This document shows positions 26,670 to 51,222 of a stretch of 64,000 nucleotides of DNA, piece by piece. The DNA comes from Candidatus Daviesbacteria bacterium (GTDB taxonomy: Bacteria; Patescibacteriota; Microgenomatia; Daviesbacterales; UBA10151): NCBI GenBank assembly GCA_016187025.1, contig JACPKM010000001.1:245688-309687 (forward strand), in the 5' to 3' direction. How positions within the stretch are numbered: the stretch's first letter is position 1; each line of letters begins with the position of its first letter. A program made the translations under genes and the position numbers. The notes under the pieces are model-generated. The model was not told the origin of the DNA. It did no database searches and saw nothing but the letters and a program-made list of their open reading frames with translations.

Positions 26670-27208
26670 AAAATATGATAAAAAAACAAGATAAGCAAAC
26701 TCAAGATAAAATAACACAACTTGAACAAAGGGTTGTTGATTTAGAAAATCAGCTTAAACGGGCAGTGGCTGATTATAGGAATTTGGAATCACGGATCAGC
26801 CAGGGAAGGTCGGAACTCACTTCTTTTGTGGGGGCAGAGTTAATAAGAAAGCTTTTACCGGTTTTGGATCATTTGGAAACAGCTTTAGGCGGATTATCTG
26901 AAGAAGAGAAACAGTCTGGTTGGGCAAAAGGGGTGGGGCTGGCGGTTAAAGAGTTTAAAAATGTTTTACAATCTGAAGGATTGGATGAAATTGCAGCAGA
27001 TGGGCAATTTGATCCAAGTTTGCATGAGGCAGTTGACATAAGGGAGGGTGATAATAATAAAATATTAGAAGTAGTAAGAAAAGGGTATAGGCTAAATGGT
27101 AAGGTGATAAGACCAGCGCAGGTGATCGTGGGACGAAAGTCGAACGGTCATCCTGAGCAAGCGGAGCGAGTCGAAGGATCTATAAATGAACTAAAGGAGG
27201 ACAAATAA
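26660..27208 (+). CDS. grpE: nucleotide exchange factor GrpE
   Basis: Coiled-coil followed by [12 protein letters not shown] and the C-terminal beta domain. Confidence 0.85.
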
Positions 27209-27209
27209 T

Positions 27210-29153
27210 ATGGCTAAAATTATTGGTATTGATTTAGGGACAACAAATTCAGCAGTGGCGGTGATGGAGGGTGGAAAGCCCAAAGTTATTCATAGTGCAG
27301 AGGGGGAAAATATTATCCCCTCTGTTGTTAATCCGACCAAAAATATAGTTGGAAGAGTAGCCAAGCGCCAGGCTGTGGTAAACCCCAAAGAGACAATTTT
27401 TTCTGTGAAAAGACTGATGGGCAGAAAGTACAAGGACTCCGAGGTACAAAGGGATATTAAATGGCTTCCATACACGATTAAAGAAGGCCGCGAAGGTATG
27501 GCTGTTGTAGAAGTTGAAGGTCATGAATATACCCCTCAAGAAATTTCCGCCCAAATTCTGCAAAAAATTAAATCCGATGCAGAGTCTTATTTAGGTGAGA
27601 AAGTTACGGATGCGGTCGTTACAGTTCCTGCTTATTTTGATGATGCCCAAAGGCAAGCTACCAAACAAGCAGGGGAAATTGCCGGACTTAATGTTCAAAG
27701 GATTATTAACGAACCAACTGCTGCAGCTTTGGCTTATGGGCTGGATAAATCCCATGCTCACACGATAGCTGTTTATGATCTGGGTGGAGGGACTTTTGAT
27801 ATCTCAATTTTGGAGCTTGGGGACGGTGTGTTTGAGGTCAAATCAACCAACGGTGATACTCACTTAGGAGGCGATGATTTTGACCAGGTAATCTTAGATC
27901 ATTTGGCAGAAGAGTTTAAAAAGGAACAGGGAATTGATCTAAAGGGGGACAGGCAAGCTCTGCAAAGGCTTCGGGATGCAGCTGAAAAAGCCAAGATTGA
28001 ACTCTCTTCCACTACCGAGGCTGAAATCTCGATCCCGTTTGTGACTGCTGATGCCTCAGGACCCAAGCATTTAGAAATGAAGTTATCCAGGTCAAAGCTT
28101 GAGGCTATGGTTAAACCTTTGATTGATAAAACTTTTGAGGCTGTTAAGGCTGCTTTGAAGGATTCAAAACATGAACCCAAAGAGATAGGTGAGGTGGTTT
28201 TAGTAGGGGGCATGACCAGAATGCCTGCAGTCCAAAAGGCAGTATCCGACTTTTTTGGCAAAGAACCACACAAAGGTATTAATCCGGACGAGGTGGTAGC
28301 TGTGGGAGCAGCCATTCAAGGAGGGGTTTTGGGCGGAGAGGTTAAAGACGTATTGCTTTTGGATGTGACTCCCCTGACTTTAGGCATTGAAACTTTGGGC
28401 GGAGTCAGAACTTCATTAATCTCTCGAAATACTACTATCCCAACTTCAAAGAGTGAAGTTTTCTCAACAGCTGCAGACAATCAGCCTGCAGTAGAGATTA
28501 ATGTCTTGCAAGGTGAAAGAGAGATGGCAGCAGATAACAAATCTTTAGGCAGGTTTGTGTTAGATGGAATTCCTCCTGCGCCCCGTGGTGTACCGCAAGT
28601 TGAAGTAACCTTTGACATTGATGCCAGCGGAATTTTGAATGTAACAGCTCATGACAAAGCAACCGGTAAGAAGCAAAATATCACCATTACCGGATCAACT
28701 GGTCTATCTAAAGATGAAGTGGAGAAAATGACCAAGGAGGCAGAAGCTCATGCTGAAGAAGATAAAAAGAGGAAAGAAGAAATTGAAATCAGAAATACAG
28801 CCGATTCCCTGGTATATTCAACTGAGCGAACCCTAAAAGACGCTGGAATAAAAGTGTCAGAAGATGTTAAAAAAGATGTGCAGGGAAAGGTGGATGAATT
28901 AAAGGAAGCTTTGAAAGGCGCATCCGTTGATGAAATTAAATCCAAAGCAGACGCTTTGGCTGAAAGCTCGCAAAAAATAGGGCAAGCAATGTACCAAGGC
29001 CAGCAAGCAGCTGGGGCACCAGGTGCTGAGACTCAATCTACTGAACAACCCGCAGGAGAGCAATCGCAGAGCGGAGAAGCTCCAAAAACTGAAGAAGCAG
29101 TCGAAGGTGAGGTGGTAGAAGAGGAGAAAAAGGATGACAGCGGAAAAGCCTGA
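27210..29153 (+). CDS. dnaK: chaperone DnaK (Hsp70)
   Basis: [22 protein letters not shown], full NBD and SBD, acidic C-terminus. Confidence 0.95.
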
Positions 29154-29186
29154 AATTAGACAATTAACACTTCTTATGGATATCCA

Positions 29187-29209
29187 GCCTCGGGAATCCG
29201 AGGCTTTTT
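29187..29209 (+). terminator. intrinsic terminator after dnaK (GCCTCGG-GAAT-CCGAGGC + TTTTT)
   Basis: 7-bp GC-rich stem, tetraloop, followed by a T5 run. Confidence 0.55.
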
Positions 29210-29217
29210 AAAAGGAA

Positions 29218-29547
29218 ATGAAAAAAAATATTATCAGTGAAAAATTAAAAGGTTTTGAAATCAAGTTTAGCACCAAACCAGGTGTTTTTTCTGAACATGG
29301 GCTTGATGAAGGTAGTAAGCTGCTGATTGATCATATGGCAATAACAGATGAAACTATTTTGGCTGATTTAGGTTGTGGCTCTGGAGTAATAGGTTTTGTG
29401 CATTTAAAGCCTAAAGGGGAAACTACTTGGGTAGTTCAAACTCAAATCAAACCTGTTGTTGAGCGTTTATTTGAAAAGTATTTTGGAAACTGTAAAATAG
29501 TGGCAGCTGGAAAAAGACACGTGATTATAAAAGCGCAGAAAGGATAA
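29218..29547 (+). pseudogene. RsmC/RlmG-like small-domain methyltransferase with in-frame internal deletion (N-terminal region plus motif I fused to the C-terminal strand; catalytic NPPxH region absent)
   Basis: FSTKPGVFSEHGLDEGSKLL...DLGCGSGVIG followed directly by ...FGNCKIVAAGKRHVIIKAQKG; only 109 aa. Confidence 0.4.
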
Positions 29548-29549
29548 AT

Positions 29550-30476
29550 ATGGCAGCTAAAAAAGATTACTATGACATATTAGGGATTACAAAAAATTCC
29601 TCAGAGGCAGAAATTAAATCTGCCTATCGTAAGTTGGCAAGAAAACATCATCCGGATATAGACAAGTCAGCTGGTGCAGCGGAAAGATTTAAAGAAATCT
29701 CAGAAGCTTATCAGGTTTTATCTGATACACAAAAAAAGGGTGCTTACGATCAGTTTGGTCATGCAGCCTTTGATAGAGGAGCGGGTGGGACTGGACCATT
29801 TGGAGCAGGGGCAGGTGGGTTTAACCCCTTTGGGCAAGGAGGATTTAGAACATACACCTGGTCTACAGGTGGAGGAGGGTCAAACACTGGATTTGATTTT
29901 GGCGGGTTTGAAGATCCGTTTGACCTTTTTGAACAGATTTTTGGTGGAGCATCTCCCTTTGGAGGGTTTAGCAGAAGACCTACCTATCAAATGAACCTAA
30001 TATTTGATGAAGCTATAAAAGGAGTTACTAAAGAGATAGAAATAGAGCAGAGAAACCAAAAAGGGACGATAGAGCGAAAGAGAATGAAAATTAAAGTTCC
30101 TGCTGGTGTTACTAATGGAACCAAAATACGGTTTGGGGATATCGATATTGTTTTTCAGGTGGAAAGGCATCCAGAGTTTATCAGAGAGGGAGCAGATGTT
30201 TTTTCAGATATCAGAGTCTCTATTCCGCAACTGGTTTTAGGGGAGACTTTAGAAGTAAATACTGTAGGAGGAAAGGTTAAGGTGAAATTACCTGCTGCTA
30301 CCCAGCCTGGTTCACTGGTAAAGTTAAAGGGTAAAGGTGCACCTTCGCTTCGAGGAGGATATGGTGATCATTATGTTAGGGTGAATGTTTCTATTCCAAA
30401 GACCCTTTCAAAACAGGAAAAAGAGCTTTATGAGAAACTGAAAGAACTCTCTTCAAATAAAAAAGGGTGGTTTTGA
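29550..30476 (+). CDS. dnaJ: DnaJ-class co-chaperone, type II (J domain + G/F region + C-terminal domains, no zinc finger)
   Basis: KDYYDILGI...KHHPD J domain, Gly/Phe-rich region, no CxxCxGxG repeats. Confidence 0.8.
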   Translation: MAAKKDYYDILGITKNSSEAEIKSAYRKLARKHHPDIDKSAGAAERFKEISEAYQVLSDTQKKGAYDQFGHAAFDRGAGGTGPFGAGAGGFNPFGQGGFRTYTWSTGGGGSNTGFDFGGFEDPFDLFEQIFGGASPFGGFSRRPTYQMNLIFDEAIKGVTKEIEIEQRNQKGTIERKRMKIKVPAGVTNGTKIRFGDIDIVFQVERHPEFIREGADVFSDIRVSIPQLVLGETLEVNTVGGKVKVKLPAATQPGSLVKLKGKGAPSLRGGYGDHYVRVNVSIPKTLSKQEKELYEKLKELSSNKKGWF

Positions 30477-31998: not shown

Positions 31999-33129
31999 AT
32001 GGCACAGGCTAGAACAGAATTTGCAGCTGCATTAAATCAAATTGCCTCTGAAAAAGGGGTTGAACCTTCTGTGGTTTTAGAAGCAATTAAAGCTGCAGCA
32101 ATTGCTGCTTATAAAAAAGATTTAGTCTTAAGAAATGAAACAGTTCCCGAGGATTTTAGCGATTACTCATCTAAAGTAGATCCTGTAACAGGTGAAATCA
32201 CTATCTTTCGTGGCAGTGATAATGTAACCCCTCCTGGTTTTGCCAGAATTGCCGCATCCATTGCCAAACAGGTAATAATGCAAAAGCTAAACGAGGCAGA
32301 GAGAAGTGCGATTTTATCAGAGTATGAGAATAAAGTAGGATCTGTTATTTCTGGAGCAATCCAAAGACAAGAAGGAAACACCTATTTTGTAGACTTAGGT
32401 AGAGCTGAAGGAATTCTACCTCCTTCAGATCAAAGCCGGGATGAAATTTATCATCAAAATCAAAGATTAAAGTTTTATATTAAAGAGATTAGGGAAGGCG
32501 GACGGGGTTCCGAAGTAGTCGTTTCCAGGACTGATCCAGGACTTATTAAGGGACTTTTTACAATAGAGGTTCCGGAAATACAATCCGGAAATGTTGAAGT
32601 GAAAGCCATTGCCCGTGAAGCCGGTTCAAGAACCAAAATTGCTGCTATCTCCACACAAGATGGTGTTGATCCAGTCGGATCCTTGGTTGGTCAAAAAGGA
32701 GTAAGAGTTCAGGCTGTTATGAGTGAGTTAGGAGATGAAAAAATTGACATTATTCAATACTCAGAAGATCCAGCCAGGTTTATTGCTGCAGCACTATCTC
32801 CGGCAAAAGATGTAATAGTAAGGTTAGATAAGGAAAGTAAAGTTGCCAAAGTGATTGTTCCGCAAAATCAGCTGTCACTCGCCATTGGTAAAGGTGGACA
32901 AAATGTTAGACTGGCTGCAAAACTAACAGGGTGGAAGATTGATATTGAGGGATCAGGAGAACCTGAGATACAAGCCGAGGCGGTAAGTGAGGAAGAAGCT
33001 GGAACAGGTGAGAGAAAAGAAAAACCTGCCACAGCACCAACTCAAGCAACACCAGTTGATGACACACAAACAACAGATCTTTCTGCAGAAGAAACCACAG
33101 CTAAAGAAGAAGCAAGAAGCAAGAAGTAA
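31999..33129 (+). CDS. nusA: transcription termination/antitermination factor NusA
   Basis: N-terminal domain, S1 and two KH domains, acidic C-terminal tail. Confidence 0.9.
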   Translation: MAQARTEFAAALNQIASEKGVEPSVVLEAIKAAAIAAYKKDLVLRNETVPEDFSDYSSKVDPVTGEITIFRGSDNVTPPGFARIAASIAKQVIMQKLNEAERSAILSEYENKVGSVISGAIQRQEGNTYFVDLGRAEGILPPSDQSRDEIYHQNQRLKFYIKEIREGGRGSEVVVSRTDPGLIKGLFTIEVPEIQSGNVEVKAIAREAGSRTKIAAISTQDGVDPVGSLVGQKGVRVQAVMSELGDEKIDIIQYSEDPARFIAAALSPAKDVIVRLDKESKVAKVIVPQNQLSLAIGKGGQNVRLAAKLTGWKIDIEGSGEPEIQAEAVSEEEAGTGERKEKPATAPTQATPVDDTQTTDLSAEETTAKEEARSKK

Positions 33130-33227
33130 GAATAATGGTTATGACACGTTTTTTAAATTTCCTTGATTCAAAATTCTAGCTTCTAAATTCTTCTAAAAGG
33201 TTTAATATAAAGACAGGAAAAAAATTA

Positions 33228-34679
33228 ATGGCAGAAATATCACGTCCACCTATTGTTACGATCCTAGGCCATGTTGATCATGGAAAAACTACCCTGCTCG
33301 ATTTTATAAGAAAAGCAAATGTTGCCTCCAAAGAACATGGGGGTATTACCCAGCATATTGGAGCATATCAGGCAGAGCACGAAGGTAAGTTAATAACTTT
33401 TATTGATACTCCAGGTCATGCTGCATTTGAAAATATGAGATCAAGAGGAGCAAGGGTGGCAGATGTTGCAGTTTTGGTAGTTGCCATAGACGATGGGATT
33501 ATGCCTCAAACAGTTGAGGCAATCAAACATATAAAAAGTGCAAAGGTATCGATGGTTGTAGCCATCAACAAAGTTGACCTTCCAGGAATTGAAAAACAAG
33601 TCCAGCTGCAAAAGATAAAAAAACAGTTGTCTGATCATGAGGTGGTCGTTGAGGAGTACGGCGGTGATGTACCTTTAATAACCTTGTCTGCAAAATCAGG
33701 TGACGGGGTAGATAAACTGCTAGAAATGATTAATTTGGTCGCTGAAGTCAATGAGATCAAAGGGGATCCTGATACTGCTCCTGGGGGAGTAGTAATAGAA
33801 TCAACTCTGGATAAATTTAAAGGACCTATTGCAACAATTTTGATCAGAAATGGATCTTTAAAAAAAGGAGACCAGATTTTGGTTGGTGGAGTTAAAGGAA
33901 AGGTTCGGGCAATGTTTGACTACAGTGGCAAACAACTTGAAAAAGCCTTACCGTCTATGCCGGTTGAGATATTGGGTTTAGAAGGAGTTCCTCCAGTAGG
34001 GTCAACTTTAGGCGAGGAAATGGAAGCAAAAAAGCGGGAAGTAACTGACTCAAGTTTACTGGGGAAGTTAAGAGATAAAGACAAGAAAACCTTGAAACTT
34101 GTTATTAAAGCAGACAAACAAGGTTCACTGGAAGCCATAGAAACATCTTTGGAAAAGTTCAATCAGGAGGGACAAGTGGTTGAGTTTATTTTTATAGGTA
34201 CAGGAGATGTCACAGAAGATAATGTTAAAAGAGCTGCTGCAGTTGGTGCAATTGTTTTAGGATTTAATGTAAAGGTAGTTCCAGCAGCAACAAAACTGGC
34301 AGAAAATGAGGGAGTTTTAATCAGAACCTACAATATTATTTATGAGTTGCTGGACGAGATGGAAGAGGTAGTAGAAGATTTACTGAGGGTAGGACAAGTA
34401 GAGGAAATTTTAGGAAGTGCCCAGGTTATTGCGGAGTTTCCTTATGGCAAAAATGAGAAAATAGCAGGTTGTAGGGTAGAAGAAGGAATAATTTCAAAAG
34501 GCCATAGGATAAGAATAGTGAGGGACGGAGAGATATTGAACGAAACAAGGATTAAATCTTTGAAAAAAGTGAAAGAAGAGGTCGCAAGGGTGGAAAAGGG
34601 AAATGATTGCGGAATGATGTTTGATTCTCAGGTAGAGTTTAGAATAGGTGATACTGTTGAATCCTTCAGGGTTATATGA
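33228..34679 (+). CDS. infB: translation initiation factor IF-2 (short form starting at the G domain)
   Basis: ILGHVDHGKTTLLD, DTPGH, NKVD; C-terminal beta-barrel domains. Confidence 0.9.
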   Translation: MAEISRPPIVTILGHVDHGKTTLLDFIRKANVASKEHGGITQHIGAYQAEHEGKLITFIDTPGHAAFENMRSRGARVADVAVLVVAIDDGIMPQTVEAIKHIKSAKVSMVVAINKVDLPGIEKQVQLQKIKKQLSDHEVVVEEYGGDVPLITLSAKSGDGVDKLLEMINLVAEVNEIKGDPDTAPGGVVIESTLDKFKGPIATILIRNGSLKKGDQILVGGVKGKVRAMFDYSGKQLEKALPSMPVEILGLEGVPPVGSTLGEEMEAKKREVTDSSLLGKLRDKDKKTLKLVIKADKQGSLEAIETSLEKFNQEGQVVEFIFIGTGDVTEDNVKRAAAVGAIVLGFNVKVVPAATKLAENEGVLIRTYNIIYELLDEMEEVVEDLLRVGQVEEILGSAQVIAEFPYGKNEKIAGCRVEEGIISKGHRIRIVRDGEILNETRIKSLKKVKEEVARVEKGNDCGMMFDSQVEFRIGDTVESFRVI

Positions 34680-34739: not shown

Positions 34740-35723
34740 TTGGTGGTAGAATCACCCTTACAAATGCAATACGATTCGCAACTAACAGAGCTAAAAAACC
34801 TACTTCCGGCAGCCAAGAGTATTCTTATTGCCCTTCCTATTGGTGCAAGTATTGATAAACTGGCTTCAGGATTGGCTCTTTTTCTGTCTTTGCAACAGCA
34901 AGGAAAAGAAGTTTCTATAGTTTCTGATGATAATGTAAACGTTTCCCAAGCCTACCTTTTTGGAGTAGACCGTATTCAAAAAAATGTCTCTCAAGCAGGA
35001 GGAGCAGGTGGAAACATGACTCTTGTATTGGAGGGGGTTGCTGCATCAGATGGAACAGTTCCAGCATTACAAAAGTTGGACTGGTTTGCAGAAAACAACA
35101 ATTTAAACTTAGTATTTCATATTATGCCAGGGCAGACCTTTCAGCCTGCAAAAATCACTCCCAAATACCAGGTTTCCGGATTTAGTTTAGTTTTCGTTAT
35201 TGGAGCAACAAATTTAAATAATTTAGGAAATTTATATACTCAAAATTCACAAATGTTTTCCGGGGCACATATTGTAAATTTTGATAATCAAACCTCAAAT
35301 AGTAACTTCGGGCAAACAAACCTACTAGATACTAACGCTGCCTCTCTCTCTGAAATGACTCAATCAGTGATTTCTTCACTGGGATTACCAGTTGATGCAG
35401 ATATAGCTAGTAACTTACTGGCAGGTATATTTGAAGCAACCAACAATCTGACAAGTTCAAATGTAACTGCCGATACTTTTATATCTGTAGCAGACTGCTT
35501 AAGAGCAGGTGGTAAAAAGCCACAAGGGATTCAAACCCAGGAGGGTCCAAAGCTAGAATTAAACCAATTCATGCCTCCGTCACAACAAGTTACTCAAACA
35601 CCGCAAAACCAGCCTTCTCAAGAGGAGCGTCCTGCCGGCGAGGGTTTAAGGTCTGCAGAATCTGTTGAAGTAGAGCCGGAATGGTTAACTCCAAAAATAT
35701 TTAAAGGTTCATCTATAGGATGA
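34740..35723 (+). CDS. hypothetical protein, possibly a degenerate DHH-family (NrnA-like) protein lacking the catalytic Asp/His residues
   Basis: Position downstream of infB where nrnA/rbfA usually sit; N-terminus SILIALPIGASIDKLASGLALFLSL resembles DHH motif I region but with DGD replaced. Confidence 0.3.
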   Translation: MVVESPLQMQYDSQLTELKNLLPAAKSILIALPIGASIDKLASGLALFLSLQQQGKEVSIVSDDNVNVSQAYLFGVDRIQKNVSQAGGAGGNMTLVLEGVAASDGTVPALQKLDWFAENNNLNLVFHIMPGQTFQPAKITPKYQVSGFSLVFVIGATNLNNLGNLYTQNSQMFSGAHIVNFDNQTSNSNFGQTNLLDTNAASLSEMTQSVISSLGLPVDADIASNLLAGIFEATNNLTSSNVTADTFISVADCLRAGGKKPQGIQTQEGPKLELNQFMPPSQQVTQTPQNQPSQEERPAGEGLRSAESVEVEPEWLTPKIFKGSSIG

Positions 35724-35826: not shown

Positions 35827-36096
35827 ATGCCACTTGATCCAAAGATTAAGCAGAAAATAATTAAAGAGTTTGCAACTAAATCCGGTGATACAGGCTCTCC
35901 TGAAGTACAAGTTGCTCTTTTAACTGAACAAATTAAAAATCTTACTTCTCACTTAAAAGAACACACCCATGATATCCATTCAAGAAGAGGGCTTTTATCT
36001 ATGGTTAACAAGCGCAGAAGGTTATTGCAGTATTTAGTTAAAAAAGACGCGGACAGGTATAAAATCGTTATAGAAAAGTTAGGATTATCCAAGTAA
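35827..36096 (+). CDS. rpsO: 30S ribosomal protein S15
   Basis: 89 aa; [17 protein letters not shown]...HSRRGLL...RRRLLQYL consensus. Confidence 0.9.
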
Positions 36097-36244: not shown

Positions 36245-38539
36245 TTGATGAATAAGATAATAAATAAAGAGATTGATTTAAACGGTAGAAAGTTAAAACT
36301 TGAAACCGGTAAGATAGCCCAGCAAGCAGATGCTGCGGTAGTTGCTTCGTGGGGAGAAACAGTTGTTTTGGCAACCGTTGCAACCCAGCCTCAAAAAATA
36401 GATATTGGTTATTTTCCCTTGTCTGTTGAATATGTTGAAAAATATTATGCTGGGGGAAGAATTTCTTCTTCAAGATTTATTAAAAGAGAAGCAAGACCAT
36501 CAGAGGAAGCTGTTTTAACAGGAAGGTTGATTGACAGATCAATTCGCCCGCTTTTTCCTAAAGATTTTAAAAATGAGGTTCAGGTGATTGTGACTGTGTT
36601 ATCAATAGACCAAGCCAATGATCCAGATATAGTAGGTTTAATTGGGGCATCAGCTGCTTTATCCATATCTTCAGTTCCTTGGAATGGTCCTATTAGCGGC
36701 GTAAGAGTAGGAGTCAAAGAAGGAAAATTTGAAATAAATCCTACTATTGCAGAATTAGAACACTTAGAAATGGATTTGTTTATAGCTTCCACCCCGGAAA
36801 AAATAATTATGGTTGAGGCCCAAGGTAATCAGGTAGAGGATGAAGTTGTTTTTGAAGGAATAAAACTGGCATTTGAGTCATCCCAGCCAATAGTAAATCT
36901 TATAAAAGAGTTTGCCAAAGAAGCTGGAAAGCCTAAGATAGAGTATTCGCATATTGAAGAGCAAATTGAGGAAGCCCTTTTTAAAGAAGCCAAAGGGTTA
37001 ATGAAGGAAAAAGTCGAGAAAGCTCTCCTTGATTTAGAAAGCCCTTGGAGAGATGCCAAAGGGGAAGAAATTAAAGCAGAGCTTTCGGAAAAATATGCTG
37101 AGAGTTTGACTCCGGAGGTCATCTCTGGAATCTTTGAAAAGGTTGCCAGGGAGATCATGCATGAGACAGTTTTAGTTAAAAAACAAAGAGTAGATGGTAG
37201 GGCAATGGATGAGGTAAGACACATTGAAATGGAAGTTGGGGTTCTACCAAGAACTCATGGAAGTGCCATATTTACCCGCGGCGAGTCACAGGTTTTATCA
37301 GTAGCAACGCTTGGCGCTCCTTCTTTGCAACAAACCTTAGAAGGGATGGAAGGTGAAAGACAAAAGCGCTATATGCACCACTACAATATGGGTAATAATC
37401 CTTTTGCCTCAGGAGAAGTTAAAAGGCTTGGTACTCCCAACAGAAGAGATATAGGTCATGGTGCTTTGGCAGAAAAAGCTTTAATAGCAGTTTTGCCTAC
37501 ACAAGAAGAGTTTCCTTATGCAGTCAGGGTTGTTTCAGAAGTATTAGGGGCCAATGCTTCTACTTCCATGGCCTCTGTTTGTGGGTCAACTTTGGCTCTG
37601 CTTAATGCCGGAGCGCCATTAAAAGCTCCAGTTGCTGGAATTGCCCTTGGACTTTTATCTGATGAAAAAAGTTTTCAGGTAATCACTGATATGCAGGCAA
37701 TTGAAGACTTCTTCGGAGAGATGGATTTTAAAGTTGCAGGTACCCAAAAAGGAGTCACTGCAATTCAAATGGATACTAAACTTAATGGTTTAACTTTTGA
37801 AATCATTGAGGAAGCCTTAAAACAAGGTAAGCAAGCCAGACTTTTTATCTTAAAAGAGATGGAAAAAGTTATCCCAACTGCTGGTCCGCTATCTCCCCAT
37901 GCTCCTAGAGTGGATATATTACATATAAAACCAGAAGAGATTGGAATGTTGATTGGACCAGGTGGAAAAAATATTAATGGTATTATTGCAAAAACTGGAG
38001 CTCAAATTGACATTGAAGATGATGGTACGGTTATGGTATCTGGTACAGATCCTGAAGGGGTAGAAAAAGCTCTTCAGGCAATCGAGGGAATGTTTAAAAC
38101 AGTGACACCAGGAGAGGTATACACAGGTAAAGTGGTAAGACTGGCTCCGTTTGGTGCATTTGTGGAAATTTTACCTGGAAAAGATGGGTTGGTGCATATA
38201 TCTCAAATGGCTCCAGGGCATGTTGATACAGCAGAGGATATTGTGTCAGAAGGACAAGAGGTTCAAGTAAGAGTAACAGATGTTTCTCCTGACGGTAAAA
38301 TTGCTTTATCCATGTTGTTTGGTGAGGATATGAAACCAGAAACCGAAGGAAGGCCATCACGTACACCAGGTGGCTCATCTAGAGACAGAGGTGGGTTTGG
38401 AGGAGAAAGAAGAAGCGGTGGTGGATCTCGCAGGTTTGGCTTTGACCGGTCAGGTGGAGAAAGGCGTGGGGGATTTGATAGAGGAGGTTTTGACCGAAGA
38501 CGCGCAGGCGGTGGTAGAAGAGGTGGGTTTGGTAGATAG
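36245..38539 (+). CDS. pnp: polynucleotide phosphorylase with C-terminal Arg/Gly-rich (RGGF/RGGFD repeat) tail
   Basis: Two RNase PH domains, KH and S1 domains; about 60-aa RGG-type extension after the S1 domain. Confidence 0.9.
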   Translation: MMNKIINKEIDLNGRKLKLETGKIAQQADAAVVASWGETVVLATVATQPQKIDIGYFPLSVEYVEKYYAGGRISSSRFIKREARPSEEAVLTGRLIDRSIRPLFPKDFKNEVQVIVTVLSIDQANDPDIVGLIGASAALSISSVPWNGPISGVRVGVKEGKFEINPTIAELEHLEMDLFIASTPEKIIMVEAQGNQVEDEVVFEGIKLAFESSQPIVNLIKEFAKEAGKPKIEYSHIEEQIEEALFKEAKGLMKEKVEKALLDLESPWRDAKGEEIKAELSEKYAESLTPEVISGIFEKVAREIMHETVLVKKQRVDGRAMDEVRHIEMEVGVLPRTHGSAIFTRGESQVLSVATLGAPSLQQTLEGMEGERQKRYMHHYNMGNNPFASGEVKRLGTPNRRDIGHGALAEKALIAVLPTQEEFPYAVRVVSEVLGANASTSMASVCGSTLALLNAGAPLKAPVAGIALGLLSDEKSFQVITDMQAIEDFFGEMDFKVAGTQKGVTAIQMDTKLNGLTFEIIEEALKQGKQARLFILKEMEKVIPTAGPLSPHAPRVDILHIKPEEIGMLIGPGGKNINGIIAKTGAQIDIEDDGTVMVSGTDPEGVEKALQAIEGMFKTVTPGEVYTGKVVRLAPFGAFVEILPGKDGLVHISQMAPGHVDTAEDIVSEGQEVQVRVTDVSPDGKIALSMLFGEDMKPETEGRPSRTPGGSSRDRGGFGGERRSGGGSRRFGFDRSGGERRGGFDRGGFDRRRAGGGRRGGFGR

Positions 38540-38568: not shown

Positions 38569-39606
38569 ATGGAAGGTACTGCCCAGGATTTAACTATCAA
38601 TTTCAAACAACAGATTACATCATCAAATATTCCTAACGAGATAAAAGAAAAGCTTTTAAATTTATTAAAGTTTTCAGGTTCACAAACTGGTGGATGGGCT
38701 GAATTTGAAAAAACAGCAAGCTACATTGAGTTTACACTGGCACTTCCGTTTGGAAAAGTAAGTAATGATATATTAGATCTAAACCGGGCAAAACAAATTT
38801 TAGACAGAGATCATTATGGTCTACAATCTGTAAAAGATAGAGTCTTAGAGTATTTATCAGTATTGATTTTACACAAGCAAAAAGGTGTTGGCTCAAGTTT
38901 CCATGCACCAATCCTGGCATTTATAGGACTTGTTGGTACCGGTAAAACTACAATTGCTTATTCAATAGCAGAAAGCTTAGGTAGACCAATCTTCCGTATA
39001 CCTTTTGGCGGGTTAGGAGATCCAGCTACCTTAAGGGGACAATCTAGAATCAAAGTTGATGCTGAAGCTGGACAGATTATGAAAGCAATAAAGCTTGCTC
39101 AAGTAAATAACCCTGTAATTCTTCTTGATGAGATTGACCGTGTCTCTGAAGAAGGAAAACTCGATATAATGGGAGTGTTAATTGAGCTTTTGGATCCGCA
39201 ACAAAATCATGCATTTATAGACAGATATTTAGATTTTTCTTATGATCTTTCACAAGTAATGTTTATTGCAACAGCCAACAACACTGGGAATATTTCTACT
39301 GCAGTTTTAGACAGGATTGAGCCTATTCAAATGCCTTCTTATTCAGACGAAGAAAAGATGGTGATTGGTAAAAAGCACTTGTTTCCAAAGGCATTGTCCG
39401 AAGCAGGGGTGGATAGTAGTAAAATAAATTTAGATGAATCAATTTGGCCAATGTTAATAAGGCCTTTGGGTTATGATGCCGGAATTAGATCTTTGTCTCG
39501 CAACCTACAGGGTTTAGCAAGAAAGGTTGCCAGAAAAATCGTTGAAGGAAATACTGGACCATTTAATATAAATAGTCAGAACTTAGGAGAATATTTAGAA
39601 AGTTAA
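38569..39606 (+). CDS. Lon-like AAA+ ATPase module without N-domain or S16 protease domain
   Basis: Collinear with the Lon segment ...ILDTDHYGLERVKDRILEYL...GPPGVGKTS...LLDEIDK...ATSN...LLDRME...EAGVRGL (here ILDRDHYGLQSVKDRVLEYL, GLVGTGKTT, ILLDEIDR, ATANN, VLDRIE, DAGIRSL); stops where the Lon protease domain would begin; next gene starts 4 nt later. Confidence 0.7.
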   Translation: MEGTAQDLTINFKQQITSSNIPNEIKEKLLNLLKFSGSQTGGWAEFEKTASYIEFTLALPFGKVSNDILDLNRAKQILDRDHYGLQSVKDRVLEYLSVLILHKQKGVGSSFHAPILAFIGLVGTGKTTIAYSIAESLGRPIFRIPFGGLGDPATLRGQSRIKVDAEAGQIMKAIKLAQVNNPVILLDEIDRVSEEGKLDIMGVLIELLDPQQNHAFIDRYLDFSYDLSQVMFIATANNTGNISTAVLDRIEPIQMPSYSDEEKMVIGKKHLFPKALSEAGVDSSKINLDESIWPMLIRPLGYDAGIRSLSRNLQGLARKVARKIVEGNTGPFNINSQNLGEYLES

Positions 39607-39609
39607 CCT

Positions 39610-41304
39610 ATGAAAAGTTTTGTACCAAAATTCAGTTTAAATAAAAATAATAATCAACCCCTAAAACTTATTCCCCTCGGGGGTGTTGGTGATGTGACAA
39701 AAAATATGTATATTTATGAATATGGTGACGATATTATAATCGTTGATTGCGGAGTAGGTTTTCCGGATGAAGCCATGCCAGGAGTTGATTTGGTAATTCC
39801 TGATATATCGTATTTAAGAGATAAAAAAAATAAGATAAAAGCAATCTTGATTACTCATGGTCATGATGATCATATAGGTGGACTGCCCTACCTTTGGCCA
39901 GAACTTCAGGTTCCAATATATACTCAAAAATTAACTTGTGGGTTTATTCGAACAAAATTTACCGAGTTTGGTTTACCAAAAAATTCAATTCATGAGGTAA
40001 AAATTTCTGATAAGCTAACCTTAGGAGCATTTAATATTTCTTTTTATCAAGTGTCTCATTCAGTACCAGACTCCATGGGAATTGTAATTGAAACCCCAGT
40101 TGGCAGAATCATACACCAGGCTGATTTTAAAATTGATTGGACACCTGTTTCTGGCCAGGTTACAGATGTAGGAAGGGTAGCCAATTTAGGGACAGCAGGA
40201 GTAAAGCTGCTTTTACTAGATTGTTTAAGAGTAGAAAAGCCCGGTTTTAATCCTTCAGAAAAATCAATTGAATCATCATTTGAAAAAGCAGCATTGGAAA
40301 CTTCTGGAAAAGTTTTAATTACTATGACCTCATCTAATGTTTCTAGAATGCAACAAGCGATAAATGTTGCAGCCAGGTTGGGAAGAAAGGTAGCTTTAGT
40401 AGGAAGGTCTTTTGAAAATAATTTTCAGGTTGCAAGAGATTTAGGATATCTACATGTACCACCTGGAGTCATAATAGCCTCAGATGCTATGTCTACATTT
40501 CCAGCAAATAAGCTACTAATTCTTATAGCCGGATCTCAGGGTCAAGCTGGTTCTTCATTATCAAGAGTTGCAAATGGTGAGCATAAATTAGTAAGAATTG
40601 GGGAGGGTGATAGTGTGGTTTTTTCAGCTGATCCTATACCTTCAACTGAAACAGAGTATAATGCCTTAATAGATTCATTAACCAGAATTGGCGTCAATGT
40701 TTATTATTCAGCAGTAACTTCTAATTTGCATGTGTCTGGTCATGCAGCAGCGGATGAATTAAAATTAATGATAAATTTGGCAAAACCTCAATACTTAATG
40801 GGTATTGGTGGAACTTTCAGGCATAACAAACTTTTTGCTAAAATGGCTCAGGATATGGGGTATAAACAAAATCAGGTTTTGGATGTAGAAGATGGAGACA
40901 TTATTAATATTTTACAAAATGATATAAAAGTTGAAGGTAAAATTGAGGTGCAAAATATTTACGTAGATGGTTTAGGAGTAGGAGATATTGGAAGTATTGT
41001 TTTAAGGGATAGAAGACTCATGAGCGAGGAGGGGATTATAGTTACGGTAATCTCTCTTGATCCTCAAACTGGAAAGATGGAAGGAGAACCAGAGATAATC
41101 TCTCGTGGTTTTGTTTTTGAGGCTTTGGCTACAGACTTATTAGACGAGGCAAAGCAAGTTGTCAAAGATAGTTTCCGTCAACACAGCAAGGGCAAGCTTG
41201 ATTGGAGGTTTTTAAGAAAAATGATAGAAGATGATTTAGAGAAGTTTTTATACAAGCATACAGAAAGGAGACCGATTATTTTACCTGTTATTGTGGAGAT
41301 ATAG
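39610..41304 (+). CDS. rnj: ribonuclease J (beta-CASP metallo-beta-lactamase)
   Basis: HGHDDHIGGLPYL motif, beta-CASP region, C-terminal domain; 564 aa. Confidence 0.85.
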   Translation: MKSFVPKFSLNKNNNQPLKLIPLGGVGDVTKNMYIYEYGDDIIIVDCGVGFPDEAMPGVDLVIPDISYLRDKKNKIKAILITHGHDDHIGGLPYLWPELQVPIYTQKLTCGFIRTKFTEFGLPKNSIHEVKISDKLTLGAFNISFYQVSHSVPDSMGIVIETPVGRIIHQADFKIDWTPVSGQVTDVGRVANLGTAGVKLLLLDCLRVEKPGFNPSEKSIESSFEKAALETSGKVLITMTSSNVSRMQQAINVAARLGRKVALVGRSFENNFQVARDLGYLHVPPGVIIASDAMSTFPANKLLILIAGSQGQAGSSLSRVANGEHKLVRIGEGDSVVFSADPIPSTETEYNALIDSLTRIGVNVYYSAVTSNLHVSGHAAADELKLMINLAKPQYLMGIGGTFRHNKLFAKMAQDMGYKQNQVLDVEDGDIINILQNDIKVEGKIEVQNIYVDGLGVGDIGSIVLRDRRLMSEEGIIVTVISLDPQTGKMEGEPEIISRGFVFEALATDLLDEAKQVVKDSFRQHSKGKLDWRFLRKMIEDDLEKFLYKHTERRPIILPVIVEI

Positions 41305-41345: not shown

Positions 41346-43475
41346 ATGTCCCGCCGCCGTTCTCTCTACCATGTGCCTAAATTAAGGCTTAAGCAAAAAA
41401 CTATAATTGGCATTGCCACAATTATTGCTCTAATATCGGCTATTTTATCTGCAGTTGCTTTGGCTACAAACTCATCATATTTACAGTTTTGGCAAGAGTT
41501 TCTAATTGAAGTTTTCGGTTGGACCGCCTTTGTCTCACCCATCCTTTTTATTTTAGTTGGGTTGGTTTTACAAAGAGTTAAATGGTCTTTTGCTCAGATG
41601 AATGTGTTACTAGGATTGATTTTGATAATTTTAGGATCAACAAGTCTAACTGCTGCTATTTCTCAACAAAAAGCCGGGATCATTGGGTTAAACATATGGG
41701 AGCAACTATCAACCTTTTTGACTACAATTGGAGCCGGAGCTTTGCTTTTGGGATTATTACTGGTTGGGGTTGTAGTGATGCTTAATGCTTCACTTAGCCA
41801 AATCTTTGGAATATTTGGAAATATATTTTCACTTCTTAAAAATACTGTTTTTAAGGCACTGTTTTCTTTGTTCAACCGTCCGAAAACTTTTGAAGCCAAA
41901 AATATCCCTATAAGGGTTTCTGGAGTAGATGAAAAAAATAGAAGAGCTCAAGTTGGAAGAGAGCAACAACCAGCAAAAGATATGGTGATTGCTGATACTT
42001 TAGTACAAAACGTTGCCGGTCAATCAAAGATCTGGAAATATCCTAATTTAGGTCTTTTATCTGATAAAGTCGGATCAGCGGCAGACAGAGGAGATGTTAA
42101 GAAAAATGCTGCTACTATCGAAAGAACTTTGGATTCATTTGGAATCCAAGCTAGAGTCGCTGAAGTCAACGGTGGTCCGGCTGTTACTCAATATGCATTA
42201 GAGATTTCTGCTGGAACTAAAATATCAAAAATTGCCAACCTGCAGCATGATATAGCACTGGCTTTGGCAACTCCAACAGGAACTGTCCGTATTGAGGCAC
42301 CAATTCCGGGAAAGTCTTTAGTTGGAATTGAGGTGCCAAACCGGTCACTGGAAGTTGTCGGACTGAAAAATGTTTTAGCATCAGATGAAATAAGTAAACA
42401 TAAATCAAAATTGGCAGTTGCTTTAGGAAGGGATACTGCTTCTAAGCCGGTTGTGGTTGATATTGATCGGATGCCGCATTGTTTAGTTGCAGGAACAACC
42501 GGTTCTGGTAAATCAATACTTCTAAATGCTTTTATTTCTACCCTTTTGTTCAGGAACTCACCGGATGAGTTAAAGTTAATCTTGATAGATCCAAAAAGAG
42601 TGGAATTAACAAACTTCAATGGGATTCCTCATTTGCTAACACCGGTTATAACAGAGCCTGAGAAGATTCTTTCTTCTTTAAAATGGGCGATGGCAGAGAT
42701 GGATAGAAGGTATAAACTGTTCCAATCTGTGGGAGTGAGAAATATCCAGGGTTATAACGAAATGTCAGGGTTTCAAGCCTTGCCCTATATTGTAATTATT
42801 GTTGACGAGCTTGCTGATTTGATGATGTTTGCACCAGTTGAGGTTGAGGATTCAATTACTCGTATTGCCCAACTTGCCAGGGCAACAGGTATTCATTTGG
42901 TGGTAGCCACTCAAAGACCATCAGTTGATGTAATTACAGGTTTAATCAAAGCAAATATTCCATGCAGGGTAGCATTTAATGTTTCCTCAATGATTGATTC
43001 AAGAGTTATTTTAGATGGACCAGGAGCAGAAAAACTACTTGGACGAGGAGATATGTTGTTTTTACCTCCTGATGCCAGCAAACCAATGCGTGTTCAAGGT
43101 GTATATGTTCAAGATGCAGAAATTAATAACCTGATCAAATACTTAAAGGAGTTAGGGGTTGCTCCGCAATATACAGCAGAGGTAACTGAGATGCCAATTG
43201 GCAGAATGAATGGTAGGGGTGGATCAAGTGTATCTGCTGATGGGAGAGATGATCTATTTGAAGAAGCAGTTAGAACTGTGTGTCAGTACGACAGAGCTTC
43301 AGCATCACTTTTACAAAGAAGACTTAAAGTGGGATATGCCAGAGCTGCAAGGATTTTGGACGAGTTAGAAGAAGCCGGGATTGTAGGAACAGGAGAGGGT
43401 TCAAAACCCCGGGATGTTTTGGTCAAAAACGCTGATGAATATCTTGCCCAAAGTGCAGGAGCTTCTGAAGGCTAA
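41346..43475 (+). CDS. ftsK: DNA translocase FtsK/SpoIIIE
   Basis: N-terminal TM helices, Walker A GTTGSGKS, Walker B IIVDELADLM, C-terminal gamma winged-helix domain. Confidence 0.85.
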   Translation: MSRRRSLYHVPKLRLKQKTIIGIATIIALISAILSAVALATNSSYLQFWQEFLIEVFGWTAFVSPILFILVGLVLQRVKWSFAQMNVLLGLILIILGSTSLTAAISQQKAGIIGLNIWEQLSTFLTTIGAGALLLGLLLVGVVVMLNASLSQIFGIFGNIFSLLKNTVFKALFSLFNRPKTFEAKNIPIRVSGVDEKNRRAQVGREQQPAKDMVIADTLVQNVAGQSKIWKYPNLGLLSDKVGSAADRGDVKKNAATIERTLDSFGIQARVAEVNGGPAVTQYALEISAGTKISKIANLQHDIALALATPTGTVRIEAPIPGKSLVGIEVPNRSLEVVGLKNVLASDEISKHKSKLAVALGRDTASKPVVVDIDRMPHCLVAGTTGSGKSILLNAFISTLLFRNSPDELKLILIDPKRVELTNFNGIPHLLTPVITEPEKILSSLKWAMAEMDRRYKLFQSVGVRNIQGYNEMSGFQALPYIVIIVDELADLMMFAPVEVEDSITRIAQLARATGIHLVVATQRPSVDVITGLIKANIPCRVAFNVSSMIDSRVILDGPGAEKLLGRGDMLFLPPDASKPMRVQGVYVQDAEINNLIKYLKELGVAPQYTAEVTEMPIGRMNGRGGSSVSADGRDDLFEEAVRTVCQYDRASASLLQRRLKVGYARAARILDELEEAGIVGTGEGSKPRDVLVKNADEYLAQSAGASEG

Positions 43476-48954: not shown

Positions 48955-51222
48955 GTGAATTTTGATATGAGTTTACTAAGTAACCTCTCTGCCCGGTTAG
49001 GCTTAGGGAAAAAAGAGGAACATCCAGAATACTATTTTGCTATAAACATTGGACCCCAAAGTTTAACAGCAGCTTTATGGGCGATAGAACATAACCAACT
49101 TAAGGTAATTAACACCTCATCTTTCGAGTACTCATCAATGGAGGAAATAATTTCTGTTGTTGATAAACTTCTAGGAGAGTTACTAAGCAATGATTACCCA
49201 GAACCTCAAAAGGTTTTATTTGGAGTTCCAGACTCTTGGTTGCAAGATGAAGATTTACAGGAATCATATATGAAGTTTTTGAGAAGACTGGTAAAAGAGC
49301 TAGAGTTAACTCCAATGGCTTATGTAGCATCATCACATGCCCTTTCCCATTTCCTAGAAAAACAAACTGGTACTCCGACAACAGCAATCTTAGTAGGCTT
49401 GGATGAAAAATACGTTACAGTTACTGTAGTTAGAGCTGGAAAGCTTGATACTAGCAAAGTGTCACAAAGAGGCAACAATTTAGGAGAAGATATTGAAAAG
49501 CTGTTACTGAGCTTTACTGCAATAGAAGTTTTACCTTCAAAAATAATCCTTTATGGAAATGATCATCTAGGTTTAGATAAGCATAAAAATCAACTACTTG
49601 AGTATTCTTGGATGTCGAAATTGTCTTTCTTGCACGTTCCTAAAATCGAGTCTCTAGGTGAAAATGTTGAGATAGATTCAGTGGCGTTTGCTGGAGCAGT
49701 TGAACTCAATCCGGCAGTAGAGTTTAAAAAATTACATGCAAAAGAAGATAAAGATTTTAAACCAATGAGCGAAGAAGAAATAATTGAGCAAGTTGAAGAA
49801 GTAGAAGAAGAAAAAAAAGGTGAAGTTAGCAAGGAGTTAAAAGATATAGAAGAGGATAGCAAGTATGAAGCGGCAGAAAAAGAAGTAAATATCAATAAAG
49901 TTTCAGCAGAAGAATTAGGGTTTGTCACAGGCGATATAAGAGAGACTAATTTAGTTGTACCTGAGGCTGAAGATTTTGAAAAAGATATGATTACTACCCC
50001 TCCTGCCTATGATATTTCTACCAAAAAAGCTGCAGGTTTGGGAAAAAAGCTCAAATTTATACAGTTTTTAAGCATTAAAGACTATATAAAAGGAAGAGGA
50101 ATCTATCTTTCTATAGTTATTTCGGTTTTTCTTTTATTGCTGGGTGGGTACCTATTTTTATTAAAGTCTGATGTCAAAGTTTTTGTCGAACCACAAATAC
50201 TAGAAAAAGATGCTCAAATAGTTGCAGATCCGGCTATTAAAGAAGTAAATGAAGCAGACAATAAAATTCCAGGACAATCAGTCGATATTAGGATAAATGG
50301 TACTGGTAAAGGAGCTGCTACTGGAACTAAACAGGTTGGAGATCCTGCTAAGGGAACTGTTGTTGTTTACAACAAAACTTTTGAGCCTAAAAGTTTTAGC
50401 AAGGGAACTACCTTAACAGCAGCAAATGGGTTTAAATACACACTTGATGTCAATGTAAATATTGCTTCTCAATCTGCAAGCGATAGTGGAATTTCCTTTG
50501 GTAAAGCGAATGCCGAAGTAACAGCAGCAAATATTGGGGCAGATGGTAATCTGCCTTCTGGAAGCGATTTAAACTTTACTAATTTTTCTTCTTCACAGGT
50601 TGGGGTTAAAGCAGAAGGTAATTTTTCAGGGGGAACAAGTAAAGAGGTTACAGTTGTTTCGGATGCTGACCAAAAGAAATTACTGGCCCAGGTTGCATCA
50701 GACTTAAAAGGGCAAGCCAAAGCAAAGTTACAAGAAAAATATCCCGATAAGAAGATTTTAGAGGAAGCATTGCAAGAAGAGATAGTTAAAAAAACATTTA
50801 GTAAAAATATCAATGATCAAGCAAGTGAGCTGTCTTTGGATTTAACAGTCAACTTTAAAGGAACAGCTTTTGAAGATAAGGATTTAAAGCAGCTGGTGTC
50901 AAAGCTTGTTTCAGTTAATGTTCCAGAAGGCTTTGAGCTAAACTTAGCAGAAACCGAAACCTTAGCTGATGTATCAAAATTAGAAAAAGATGGAAGACTG
51001 GTATTTTTGGCAAGGTTTAAGGCAAAGCTTATTCCCAAGGTAGATATTTCAGAAATTAAAAAACTAATAAGAGGTAAGACTCCTTTGCAGGTGGAAGAGA
51101 TTCTAAAAAGAAATGAACATATCTTAGGAACAGAGATAAAGCTTATCCCCTCCTTGCCGTCAGTACTTCAGAGACTGCCAATATTTGATAAAAACATTAG
51201 GGTAGAGGTAGGCCTTAAATGA
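48955..51222 (+). CDS. large bitopic membrane protein: about 375-aa cytoplasmic N-terminal region (possibly actin-like FtsA/PilM-like fold), one TM, about 355-aa extracellular C-terminal region
   Basis: TM IYLSIVISVFLLLLGGYLFLL near residue 380; N-terminus YYFAINIGPQSLTAALWAIEHNQLKVINTS resembles the first strand-loop of actin-like ATPases (weak); acidic linker. Confidence 0.5.
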   Translation: MNFDMSLLSNLSARLGLGKKEEHPEYYFAINIGPQSLTAALWAIEHNQLKVINTSSFEYSSMEEIISVVDKLLGELLSNDYPEPQKVLFGVPDSWLQDEDLQESYMKFLRRLVKELELTPMAYVASSHALSHFLEKQTGTPTTAILVGLDEKYVTVTVVRAGKLDTSKVSQRGNNLGEDIEKLLLSFTAIEVLPSKIILYGNDHLGLDKHKNQLLEYSWMSKLSFLHVPKIESLGENVEIDSVAFAGAVELNPAVEFKKLHAKEDKDFKPMSEEEIIEQVEEVEEEKKGEVSKELKDIEEDSKYEAAEKEVNINKVSAEELGFVTGDIRETNLVVPEAEDFEKDMITTPPAYDISTKKAAGLGKKLKFIQFLSIKDYIKGRGIYLSIVISVFLLLLGGYLFLLKSDVKVFVEPQILEKDAQIVADPAIKEVNEADNKIPGQSVDIRINGTGKGAATGTKQVGDPAKGTVVVYNKTFEPKSFSKGTTLTAANGFKYTLDVNVNIASQSASDSGISFGKANAEVTAANIGADGNLPSGSDLNFTNFSSSQVGVKAEGNFSGGTSKEVTVVSDADQKKLLAQVASDLKGQAKAKLQEKYPDKKILEEALQEEIVKKTFSKNINDQASELSLDLTVNFKGTAFEDKDLKQLVSKLVSVNVPEGFELNLAETETLADVSKLEKDGRLVFLARFKAKLIPKVDISEIKKLIRGKTPLQVEEILKRNEHILGTEIKLIPSLPSVLQRLPIFDKNIRVEVGLK

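Follow-up and report, generated by a model that had tools for sequence, protein, structure and literature searches.

A stand-alone Lon-type AAA+ ATPase without a protease domain, encoded between PNPase and RNase J in Daviesbacteria and related Patescibacteria

Analysis of a 64,000-nucleotide (nt) stretch from Candidatus Daviesbacteria (contig JACPKM010000001.1, positions 245,688 to 309,687; hereafter the window) revealed that the gene between those for PNPase and RNase J, here designated lonS, encodes a stand-alone AAA+ ATPase which is derived from Lon and carries neither its N-terminal domain (N domain) nor its protease domain (P domain), an assignment that we regard as near-certain. Lon is the textbook case of a single polypeptide that combines an ATPase with a protease. 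Full-text literature searches turned up no earlier account of a Lon ATPase lacking its protease, nor any of Lon in these bacteria, which belong to the Microgenomates group of Patescibacteria, and LonS is a previously undescribed non-proteolytic offshoot of Lon.

The gene was located as follows, and its product, of 345 amino acids (aa), is 100% identical to the NCBI entry 'AAA family ATPase [Candidatus Daviesbacteria bacterium]'.

38569..39606 (+): lonS, ATG start, 345 aa; stand-alone Lon-type AAA+ ATPase consisting of a three-helix bundle, a nucleotide-binding domain and a lid

According to the list of open reading frames (ORFs), the DNA upstream of the start codon is filled by pnp, with a 29-nt spacer, so that an N-terminal extension of lonS is impossible. 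At the other end, the TAA stop codon (39604-39606) is followed by the spacer CCT and by the ATG of rnj at 39610, 3 nt after the stop. An earlier note on this DNA, made from the sequence alone, had argued that the protease domain is not merely frameshifted, and this was borne out: a tblastn search of the 64-kb window, covering all frames, with a Lon protease-domain probe found neither the domain nor a remnant of it (best E 4.4), and as only chance matches were returned, a frameshifted or downstream protease domain is excluded.

Sequence comparison showed LonS to be collinear with LonA positions ~250-580, which comprise a three-helix bundle and the complete AAA+ module. Pfam assigned AAA to residues 117-253 and Lon_lid to residues 278-328, and Lon_C was not matched, while the NCBIfam model TIGR00763 'lon' (endopeptidase La) aligned over model positions 252-568 of 795 with 312 bits against a cut-off of 608, i.e. 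as a partial match. NF008053 scored 230 bits against a cut-off of 891, and a dedicated model for LonS exists in neither Pfam nor NCBIfam. The best PDB sequence matches were all Lon (7p6u residues 254-566, E 2e-68), and the 344-aa E. coli fragment in PDB 6N2I aligned between LonS 9-343 and chain residues 11-339 (E 1e-64). Pfam, TIGR00763 and the PDB alignments thus agree with the proposal in the earlier note of a Lon AAA+ module that lacks the protease domain and retains its ATPase motifs. Walker A and B, sensor 1, Arg finger and sensor 2 were all located where that proposal needs them; only the assignment of ILDxDHYGL to the lid had to be corrected, since this motif forms the entry of the nucleotide-binding domain. 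The resulting map of the protein, with residue counts over 98 diverse members of the family described below, is as follows.

38569..38739 (+): three-helix bundle, aa 1-57; matches the last three helices of the LonA HI(CC) region and aligns to Lon ~250-305
38797..38823 (+): ILDRDHYGL motif, aa 77-85, nucleotide-binding domain entry; H82 and G84 nearly invariant in diverse members
38926..38952 (+): Walker A GLVGTGKTT, aa 120-128; K126 and T127 in 98/98
39031..39075 (+): pore-loop 1 region LRGQSRIKVDAEAGQ, aa 155-169; Tyr-Ile of Lon replaced by Lys162-Val163
39118..39138 (+): Walker B ILLDEID, aa 184-190; D187 and E188 in 98/98
39139..39174 (+): pore-loop 2 region RVSEEGKLDIMG, aa 191-202; constraint relaxed relative to Lon
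39268..39282 (+): sensor 1 ATANN, aa 234-238; N237 in 98/98
39307..39324 (+): Arg finger LDRIEP, aa 247-252; R249 in 98/98
39400..39552 (+): Lon-type lid (alpha) domain, aa 278-328, Pfam Lon_lid; contains sensor 2
39475-39495 (+): sensor 2 DAGIRSL, aa 303-309; R307 in 97/98, with one gap

The segment between Walker A and Walker B is collinear with LonA and free of insertions, and the C-terminal linker motif NLxEYL, which in Lon leads into the protease domain, is conserved. An AlphaFold2 (AF2) model, built from a shallow alignment of 27 sequences and of low quality (predicted local distance difference test score, pLDDT, 64; predicted template modelling score, pTM, 0.61), arranged the chain as three N-terminal helices (2-18, 23-35 and 42-57, at moderate confidence), an alpha/beta domain and a helical lid, in this order; the bundle helices are equivalent to helices alpha8-alpha10 of the E. 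coli fragment EcLon 235-584 (PMC6722904). A Foldseek search of the PDB with this weak model returned Lon ATPase modules for all top 50 matches at E ~1e-16 and a TM score of only 0.36, which offers weak corroboration of the sequence alignments.

The search for the missing Lon parts was carried beyond the window with a hidden Markov model (HMM) of Lon_C, built from 97 full-length Lons and run against all stop-to-stop segments of 83 loci of the family (±10 kb, 1.32 Mb) as well as the window. Zero matches were obtained at E<=10 in these sequences, while the held-out E. coli domain scored 1.8e-91 as a control, and an HMM of the Lon N-region likewise gave zero matches in the 83 loci and the window, so that an adjacent split gene was rejected. 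A wider form of this explanation had been offered in the earlier note: LonS would be the ATPase half of a split Lon which, together with an S16 half and possibly an N-domain half encoded elsewhere, forms a working ATP-dependent protease. Two-gene AAA+ proteases are known from ClpXP and HslUV, and both the intact AAA+ engine and the conserved NLxEYL linker would suit such a partner. Split genes, however, usually stay adjacent in some lineages, and neither Lon_C within ±10 kb of the 83 members or in the window nor any intermediate pair of genes in the order 'AAA+ then P' was seen; the short clade is, moreover, old and monophyletic, and neither the pore-loop-1 Tyr nor pore-loop 2, which are required for delivery into the proteolytic chamber (PMC8503904), is conserved. 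We therefore consider a split Lon unlikely, and markedly so.

The short form is shared by a large family. The best 120 database clusters were 66-82% identical to LonS, measured 336-375 aa and contained Lon_C in no case, and an exhaustive search over 1.84 billion representatives at 50% identity clustering recovered full-length Lon at ~40% identity together with a Lon_C-less set of 343-669 aa, plus shorter fragments. The Lon_C-less representatives, one of them named Dojkabacteria, carry the loop signature RGxS[RK]xxx[DE][AS]EPG, where Lon has RGHRRTY[IV]GAMPG. A single scan of GTDB species-representative genomes added at least 80 lonS loci of 43-69% identity, labelled Daviesbacteria, Woese-, Levy-, Shapiro-, Gottesman-, Ames- and Roizmanbacteria, WWE3 and Dojkabacteria, many of the remainder bearing the generic label 'Patescibacteria group' or an evidently wrong one. 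The form of ~340-390 aa therefore recurs in at least 120 protein clusters and at least 80 named genome loci, often in company with pnp and rnj, which is the conservation the earlier note had looked for.

This recurrence also bears on the possibility that the short form reflects a sequencing or assembly error or the recent decay of a pseudogene, a reading for which the unusual architecture alone would speak. Equal length and boundaries in 80 genomes and in over 120 clusters of proteins that stem from independent assemblies, the invariant catalytic residues of the ATPase, the direct flanking of the ORF by pnp and rnj on either side and the missing protease remnant in all frames of the window refute it, and we give it practically no weight.

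A neighbour-joining tree was computed from 98 short sequences together with 42-45 ATPase modules of full-length Lon; in it, the short forms made up one clade of 98 tips with full-length Lon nowhere inside. Four positions are fixed differently between the short clade and full-length Lon, including the change of Walker A from GPPG to GLxG, whose P-to-L substitution is a signature of the clade. The monophyly and these four clade-specific substitutions support a single, ancient origin of the short form. In a search for a full-length sister within the CPR, the closest named full-length Lons (Porphyromonas, Spirochaetota and Clostridiales, 43-46% identity) came from unrelated phyla and proved uninformative as a clue to where lonS came from. 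In an ancestor of the Microgenomates/WWE3/Dojkabacteria radiation, a LonA-type gene shed its N-terminal substrate-binding domain and its S16 protease domain, and what was left comprised three-helix bundle, nucleotide-binding domain and lid. LonS has been under strong purifying selection since the domain loss.

Several further observations were made on the family. Some homologues (P0130, P0140, P0142/P0272, P0146, P0160 and L074) bear N- or C-terminal low-complexity extensions of 100-350 residues, rich in Q, P, S, T and N and probably disordered, which parallel the disordered PNPase tail described below; a check for fusion partners found no Pfam domain in these extensions and was uninformative. 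Many proteins of 900-1700 aa (P0121-P0129, P0131, P0134, P0136 and others) combine a Lon protease domain with two or three Lon-type AAA+ modules in tandem, one of which often shows a degenerate pore loop. Finally, the records of metagenome-assembled genomes (MAGs) for L004, L006, L008, L009, L028, L053 and other loci are titled 'uncultured Gammaproteobacteria', 'uncultured Pseudomonadales' or 'Candidatus Methanoperedens sp.' despite a typical Microgenomates locus, and these titles look like placeholder or mis-binned taxonomy.

Comparison of the short clade with full-length Lon revealed which parts of the machine have been kept. The ATPase residues mapped above, near-invariant among the 98 diverse members, follow the same pattern in 120/120 close homologues. 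In contrast, LonS reads RIKVD where pore-loop 1 of Lon has RTY[IV]G, a replacement which the earlier note had missed. The pore-loop-1 Tyr position is occupied by Tyr in 42/42 full-length Lon, whereas the 98 short-clade members have F18 H15 S13 Y10 R7 L7 K6 Q6 N5 E4 and others, and the 120 close homologues from Daviesbacteria have R75 and K34 with no aromatic residue at all. Likewise, the Gly conserved in pore-loop 2 of Lon has given way to A35 N17 S14 G10 in the short clade, and the position of Trp431 in Meiothermus taiwanensis LonA (MtaLonA) is Gly in LonS and H, G, Y or Q across the family. Among the positions conserved to at least 85% in Lon modules, 51 are identical in the short clade, 4 are fixed differently and only 4 have become variable, the latter being the Thr and the Tyr of pore-loop 1, the Glu just before pore-loop 1 and the Gly of pore-loop 2. 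Degradation by MtaLonA depends on Tyr397 of pore-loop 1 and Trp431 of pore-loop 2, both of which touch the substrate (PMC8503904). The pattern of conservation therefore says that full selection acts on the ATP engine but not on the polypeptide-gripping elements.

Because the residues of Walker A and B, sensor 1, the trans-acting Arg finger and sensor 2 are invariant, LonS is predicted to still assemble into an oligomeric ring and to hydrolyse ATP, while the loss of constraint specifically at pore-loops 1 and 2 suggests that it no longer grips polypeptides and threads them into a degradation chamber. From an ATPase inferred to be active and threading inferred to be lost follows the prediction of a non-proteolytic, ATP-driven conformational remodeller. 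EcLon(235-584), obtained by limited proteolysis, is stable, binds ADP and forms an open-ring hexamer in crystal packing (PMC6722904), and its existence as a fragment means that such a module can stand alone.

With respect to LonA (endopeptidase La, MEROPS S16; e.g. E. coli Lon, MtaLonA and human LONP1), LonS shares at ~40% identity the three-helix bundle and the whole AAA+ module with Walker A and B, sensor 1, Arg finger, sensor 2 and the Lon-type lid, and it carries the residues that define the AAA+ superfamily, including the trans-acting Arg finger. It differs by the absence of the N-terminal LON domain, of the long coiled-coil helix and of the S16 Ser-Lys protease domain, by unconserved pore-loop-1 Tyr and pore-loop 2, by GLxG instead of GPPG in Walker A and by a score below the TIGR00763 cut-off; LonS thus departs from LonA in four defining features, having neither P nor N domain, no conserved pore-loop Tyr and a score short of the family cut-off. 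EcLon(235-584) in PDB 6N2I covers a nearly identical span, although this fragment was made in the laboratory from a full protease and has canonical pore loops, whereas LonS is natural, evolves independently and has altered pore loops. In all recognised Lon subfamilies (A, B, C and BA), an A domain precedes a P domain (PMC9569914). LonC and LonB/LonBA resemble LonS in being Lon-family variants with one activity or domain modified (PMC3391209, PMC13069640, PMC9569914). LonB and LonBA retain the P domain, which LonS does not have, and are devoid of the LonA N-region, and LonB has a membrane anchor inserted into the AAA+ module between Walker A and B, an insertion not present in LonS. In LonC, the protease domain is kept and ATPase activity is lost (PMC3391209, PMC13069640), which makes it, with its degenerate ATPase, the mirror image of LonS with its intact ATPase motifs.

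Stand-alone AAA+ rings that are not fused to a peptidase offer a second comparison. ClpX and HslU, two-component unfoldases of the same clade, and the remodeller ClpB are of this kind, and the ClpB ring works without any protease. All three keep aromatic pore-loop residues, and ClpX and HslU have peptidase-docking elements; LonS, in contrast, does not keep the aromatic pore-loop residue. A relationship between LonA and ClpB has been discussed before (PMC6722904).

The surroundings of lonS provide the clue to possible partners. In the window, the gene is part of a string with the following members.

31999..34679 (+): nusA and infB, head of the string, from ORFs and synteny
34740..35723 (+): NrnA-like DHH-family gene, 327 aa; PDB sequence match, position conserved in most loci
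35827..36096 (+): rpsO (ribosomal protein S15), part of the conserved string
36245..38539 (+): pnp, PNPase of 764 aa; Pfam RNase_PH (twice), KH and S1
about 38333-38536 (+): R/G-rich tail of PNPase (RGG/RGGF-type), ~65 residues past the S1 domain, tail sequence SRDRGGFGGERRSGGGSRRFGFDRSGGERRGGFDRGGFDRRRAGGGRRGGFGR
39610..41304 (+): rnj, RNase J of 564 aa; Pfam Lactamase_B, RNase_J_b_CASP and RNase_J_C
41346..43475 (+): ftsK, last gene of the string; Pfam FtsK_alpha/FtsK_SpoIIIE/FtsK_gamma

The order nusA-infB-nrnA-like-rpsO-pnp-lonS-rnj-ftsK is present in most loci and is ancestral. Adjacency was counted from the coordinates of high-scoring segment pairs (HSPs) in loci with at least 4 kb of downstream (n=65) or upstream (n=62) sequence. 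Downstream, rnj lies on the same strand in 54/65 loci, directly adjacent in 30 and separated from lonS by one or two genes, at up to 3.5 kb, in 24; upstream, pnp was found in 40/62 (adjacent in 32, within 3 kb in 8) and is absent from 22/62. Stop and start codons of lonS and rnj are spaced by -4 to +24 nt in 19/31 ORF-called adjacent cases, and no terminator-like site was found on the + strand of the window from pnp to the end of ftsK. The association with pnp and rnj persists down to ~45% identity, while the genes past ftsK vary even within Daviesbacteria. The claim of the earlier note that lonS sits among RNA-decay genes therefore extends across lineages, with overlapping or closely spaced (<25 nt) genes in many of them.

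The product of the gene at 34740-35723 has no Pfam match, and its weak PDB sequence matches include NrnA-type DHH nanoRNases such as M. tuberculosis Rv2837c (E ~1e-5, residues 146-237), by which the string holds three RNA-degradation-type enzymes. By eye, the DHH motif region looks altered (FDN), and the protein may be a divergent or inactive NrnA. The unusual R/G-rich tail of PNPase reported in the earlier note is real, and such tails recur in PNPases of many Microgenomates loci; in Daviesbacteria, R+G account for a fraction of 0.47-0.64 of the final 70 residues, and in the other loci for a smaller one.

Based on these data, our favoured reading, which we hold tentatively and at a little less than even confidence, is that LonS would be a stand-alone, ATP-hydrolysing, non-threading and non-proteolytic Lon-derived remodeller with RNase J and PNPase as its most likely partners. 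These two are named because lonS lies inside the operon-like string nrnA-like-rpsO-pnp-lonS-rnj, in which it would often be translationally coupled to rnj; the clients could be RNase J and PNPase themselves or the ribonucleoprotein substrates of these enzymes, and the conceivable roles include assembly, disassembly or unloading of RNA-decay enzymes. Taken on its own, the partnership with RNA-decay enzymes is possible rather than probable. In the earlier note, a remodelling ATPase tied to a degradosome-like assembly had been proposed, and this stays the best hypothesis, one that derives from gene context.

Several findings weigh against the favoured reading. The link to RNA decay comes from gene order, rnj is not nearby in 11/65 loci, and the string also contains nusA, infB, rpsO and ftsK. 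A uracil-DNA glycosylase of ~208 aa (Pfam UDG) is the commonest insert between lonS and rnj (21 loci, e.g. L051 11872-12498); Nudix and metallophosphoesterase genes are inserted there as well, WWE3 loci have a Nudix hydrolase plus UDG instead, and other recurrent neighbours encode a PfkB kinase, a SLOG/LOG protein and an RNaseH_like (DUF458) protein. Given these unrelated inserts, tight coupling of lonS and rnj is not obligatory, and the synteny could be inherited operon structure. As regards the mechanism, 28/98 members keep Phe or Tyr at the pore-loop position, and threading may persist in some lineages. The full-length LonA hexamer is held together largely by its protease domains, and ring formation by LonS is a prediction from the Arg finger and from the crystal packing of EcLon(235-584). 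Furthermore, the AF2 model has a pLDDT of only 64, and the isoelectric point (pI) is not shifted to basic values (median 6.1 in the short clade and 6.2 in Lon modules), which leaves an RNA-binding signature by charge unsupported.

The main rival to the favoured reading, serious although somewhat unlikely in our view, is a general proteostasis factor: a naturally 'protease-dead' Lon acting as ATP-dependent chaperone, holdase or disaggregase-like remodeller, for which the position between pnp and rnj would be inherited and meaningless. Such a role would suit the descent of LonS from a protein-quality-control enzyme, the unrelated UDG, Nudix, metallophosphoesterase, PfkB and SLOG genes interleaved in the string and the aromatic pore-loop residue of the 28 members mentioned above, and proteolytically inactive Lon reportedly retains chaperone-like activity in yeast mitochondria. 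In 8-9 loci (L042, L045, L055, L064, L065, L071, L078 and L081), moreover, lonS is no longer part of the pnp/rnj string and stands head-to-head with groES-groEL, an arrangement which points to proteostasis. These loci, three of which have an RNaseH_like (DUF458) gene just downstream on the opposite strand, nevertheless share the single loop variant SKTSPE, and hence represent one lineage and probably one rearrangement, not a repeated association. Constraint is relaxed exactly at the polypeptide-gripping pore loops, the substrate-recognising N domain is lost, and the pnp/rnj association survives to ~45% identity while genes past ftsK vary even within Daviesbacteria, which all argue against a general proteostasis role. 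A search allowing up to 4 mismatches found no CIRCE between groES and lonS, and no CIRCE stands beside lonS, although a good one precedes hrcA-grpE-dnaK in the window; as the only good CIRCE sites precede hrcA operons, heat-shock co-regulation with groESL was rejected. The site in the window is a CIRCE-like inverted repeat at 25901-25927, TTAGCAGTC-N9-TAGTGCTAA, with 2 mismatches, directly before the Pfam-confirmed hrcA-grpE-dnaK-dnaJ operon at 25938-30476.

A more specific alternative assigns LonS the part that DEAD-box helicases play elsewhere. RhlB, CshA and RhpA partner RNase E/Y/J and PNPase in bacterial RNA degradosomes, and by analogy LonS, as a re-purposed AAA+ ring of the protease clade, might power an RNA degradosome specific to Patescibacteria as its ATP-driven motor and remodel RNA, ribonucleoprotein substrates or the nucleases themselves, with RNase J, the RGG-tailed PNPase and the NrnA-like protein as partners. 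The likeness consists of an ATPase gene linked to RNase J and PNPase, for lonS by gene order, whereas the fold and mechanism of an AAA+ ring and of a RecA-like superfamily 2 (SF2) helicase are entirely different, and we consider this distinctly unlikely.

Quite improbable, finally, is that LonS encircles or translocates RNA or DNA, as RuvB of the same AAA+ clade does with nucleic acid, or that it serves a non-S16 peptidase such as ClpP, HslV or FtsH. The replacement of the pore-loop Tyr by Arg or Lys in 109/120 Daviesbacteria sequences would fit a nucleic-acid motor, as would neighbours that mostly encode nucleic-acid enzymes (PNPase, RNase J, NrnA-like, FtsK, UDG, Nudix and RNaseH_like) and the reported binding of DNA by Lon ATPase modules, PDB 6N2I being titled 'DNA-binding ATP-dependent protease La'. 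The basic residue is, however, peculiar to Daviesbacteria, and with F, H, S, Y, L, Q, N or E at this position clade-wide it is not a conserved nucleic-acid contact; nor is the pI raised. Against a different peptidase partner, no ClpP-docking-type loop or HslU-like tail was identified, although no systematic search for these was made. Membership in a defence system was likewise rejected, as PADLOC gave weak generic AAA matches only (best DolB, 26 bits) and the context consists of housekeeping genes.

Other observations concern the window at large. Its IF2 (infB, 33228-34679, +) has 483 aa and does not contain the long N-terminal region of typical bacterial IF2, and short IF2 proteins of 459-501 aa are also found in related loci. 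Downstream of alaS, an ORF at 48955-51222 (+) with a GTG start and 755 aa has no confident Pfam match and a weak Baseplate_J-like match (E 1e-4). The GC skew of positions 1-64000 is positive in nearly every 2-kb bin, so that the cumulative skew rises monotonically, and since most long ORFs are also on the + strand, the whole window appears to lie on the leading strand of one replichore.

Databases label LonS as 'AAA family ATPase' or, wrongly, as 'ATP-dependent Lon protease' (JGI annotations). LonS should not be called a Lon protease, as counting it as such in metabolic reconstructions overstates the proteolytic repertoire of these organisms. It represents a natural, ancient and widely conserved motor that is free of the protease, of the substrate-binding domain and of the constraint on the substrate-gripping loops, and it shows that the Lon engine can serve purposes other than degradation. 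That genomes as tiny as those of Microgenomates have retained lonS suggests that its role is important, and its fixed place between PNPase and RNase J provides a testable hypothesis on the organisation of RNA decay in poorly understood bacteria. LonS thus offers a clean and conserved example in which the motor of a protease is used again without the protease, in an RNA-decay context that is suggestive.

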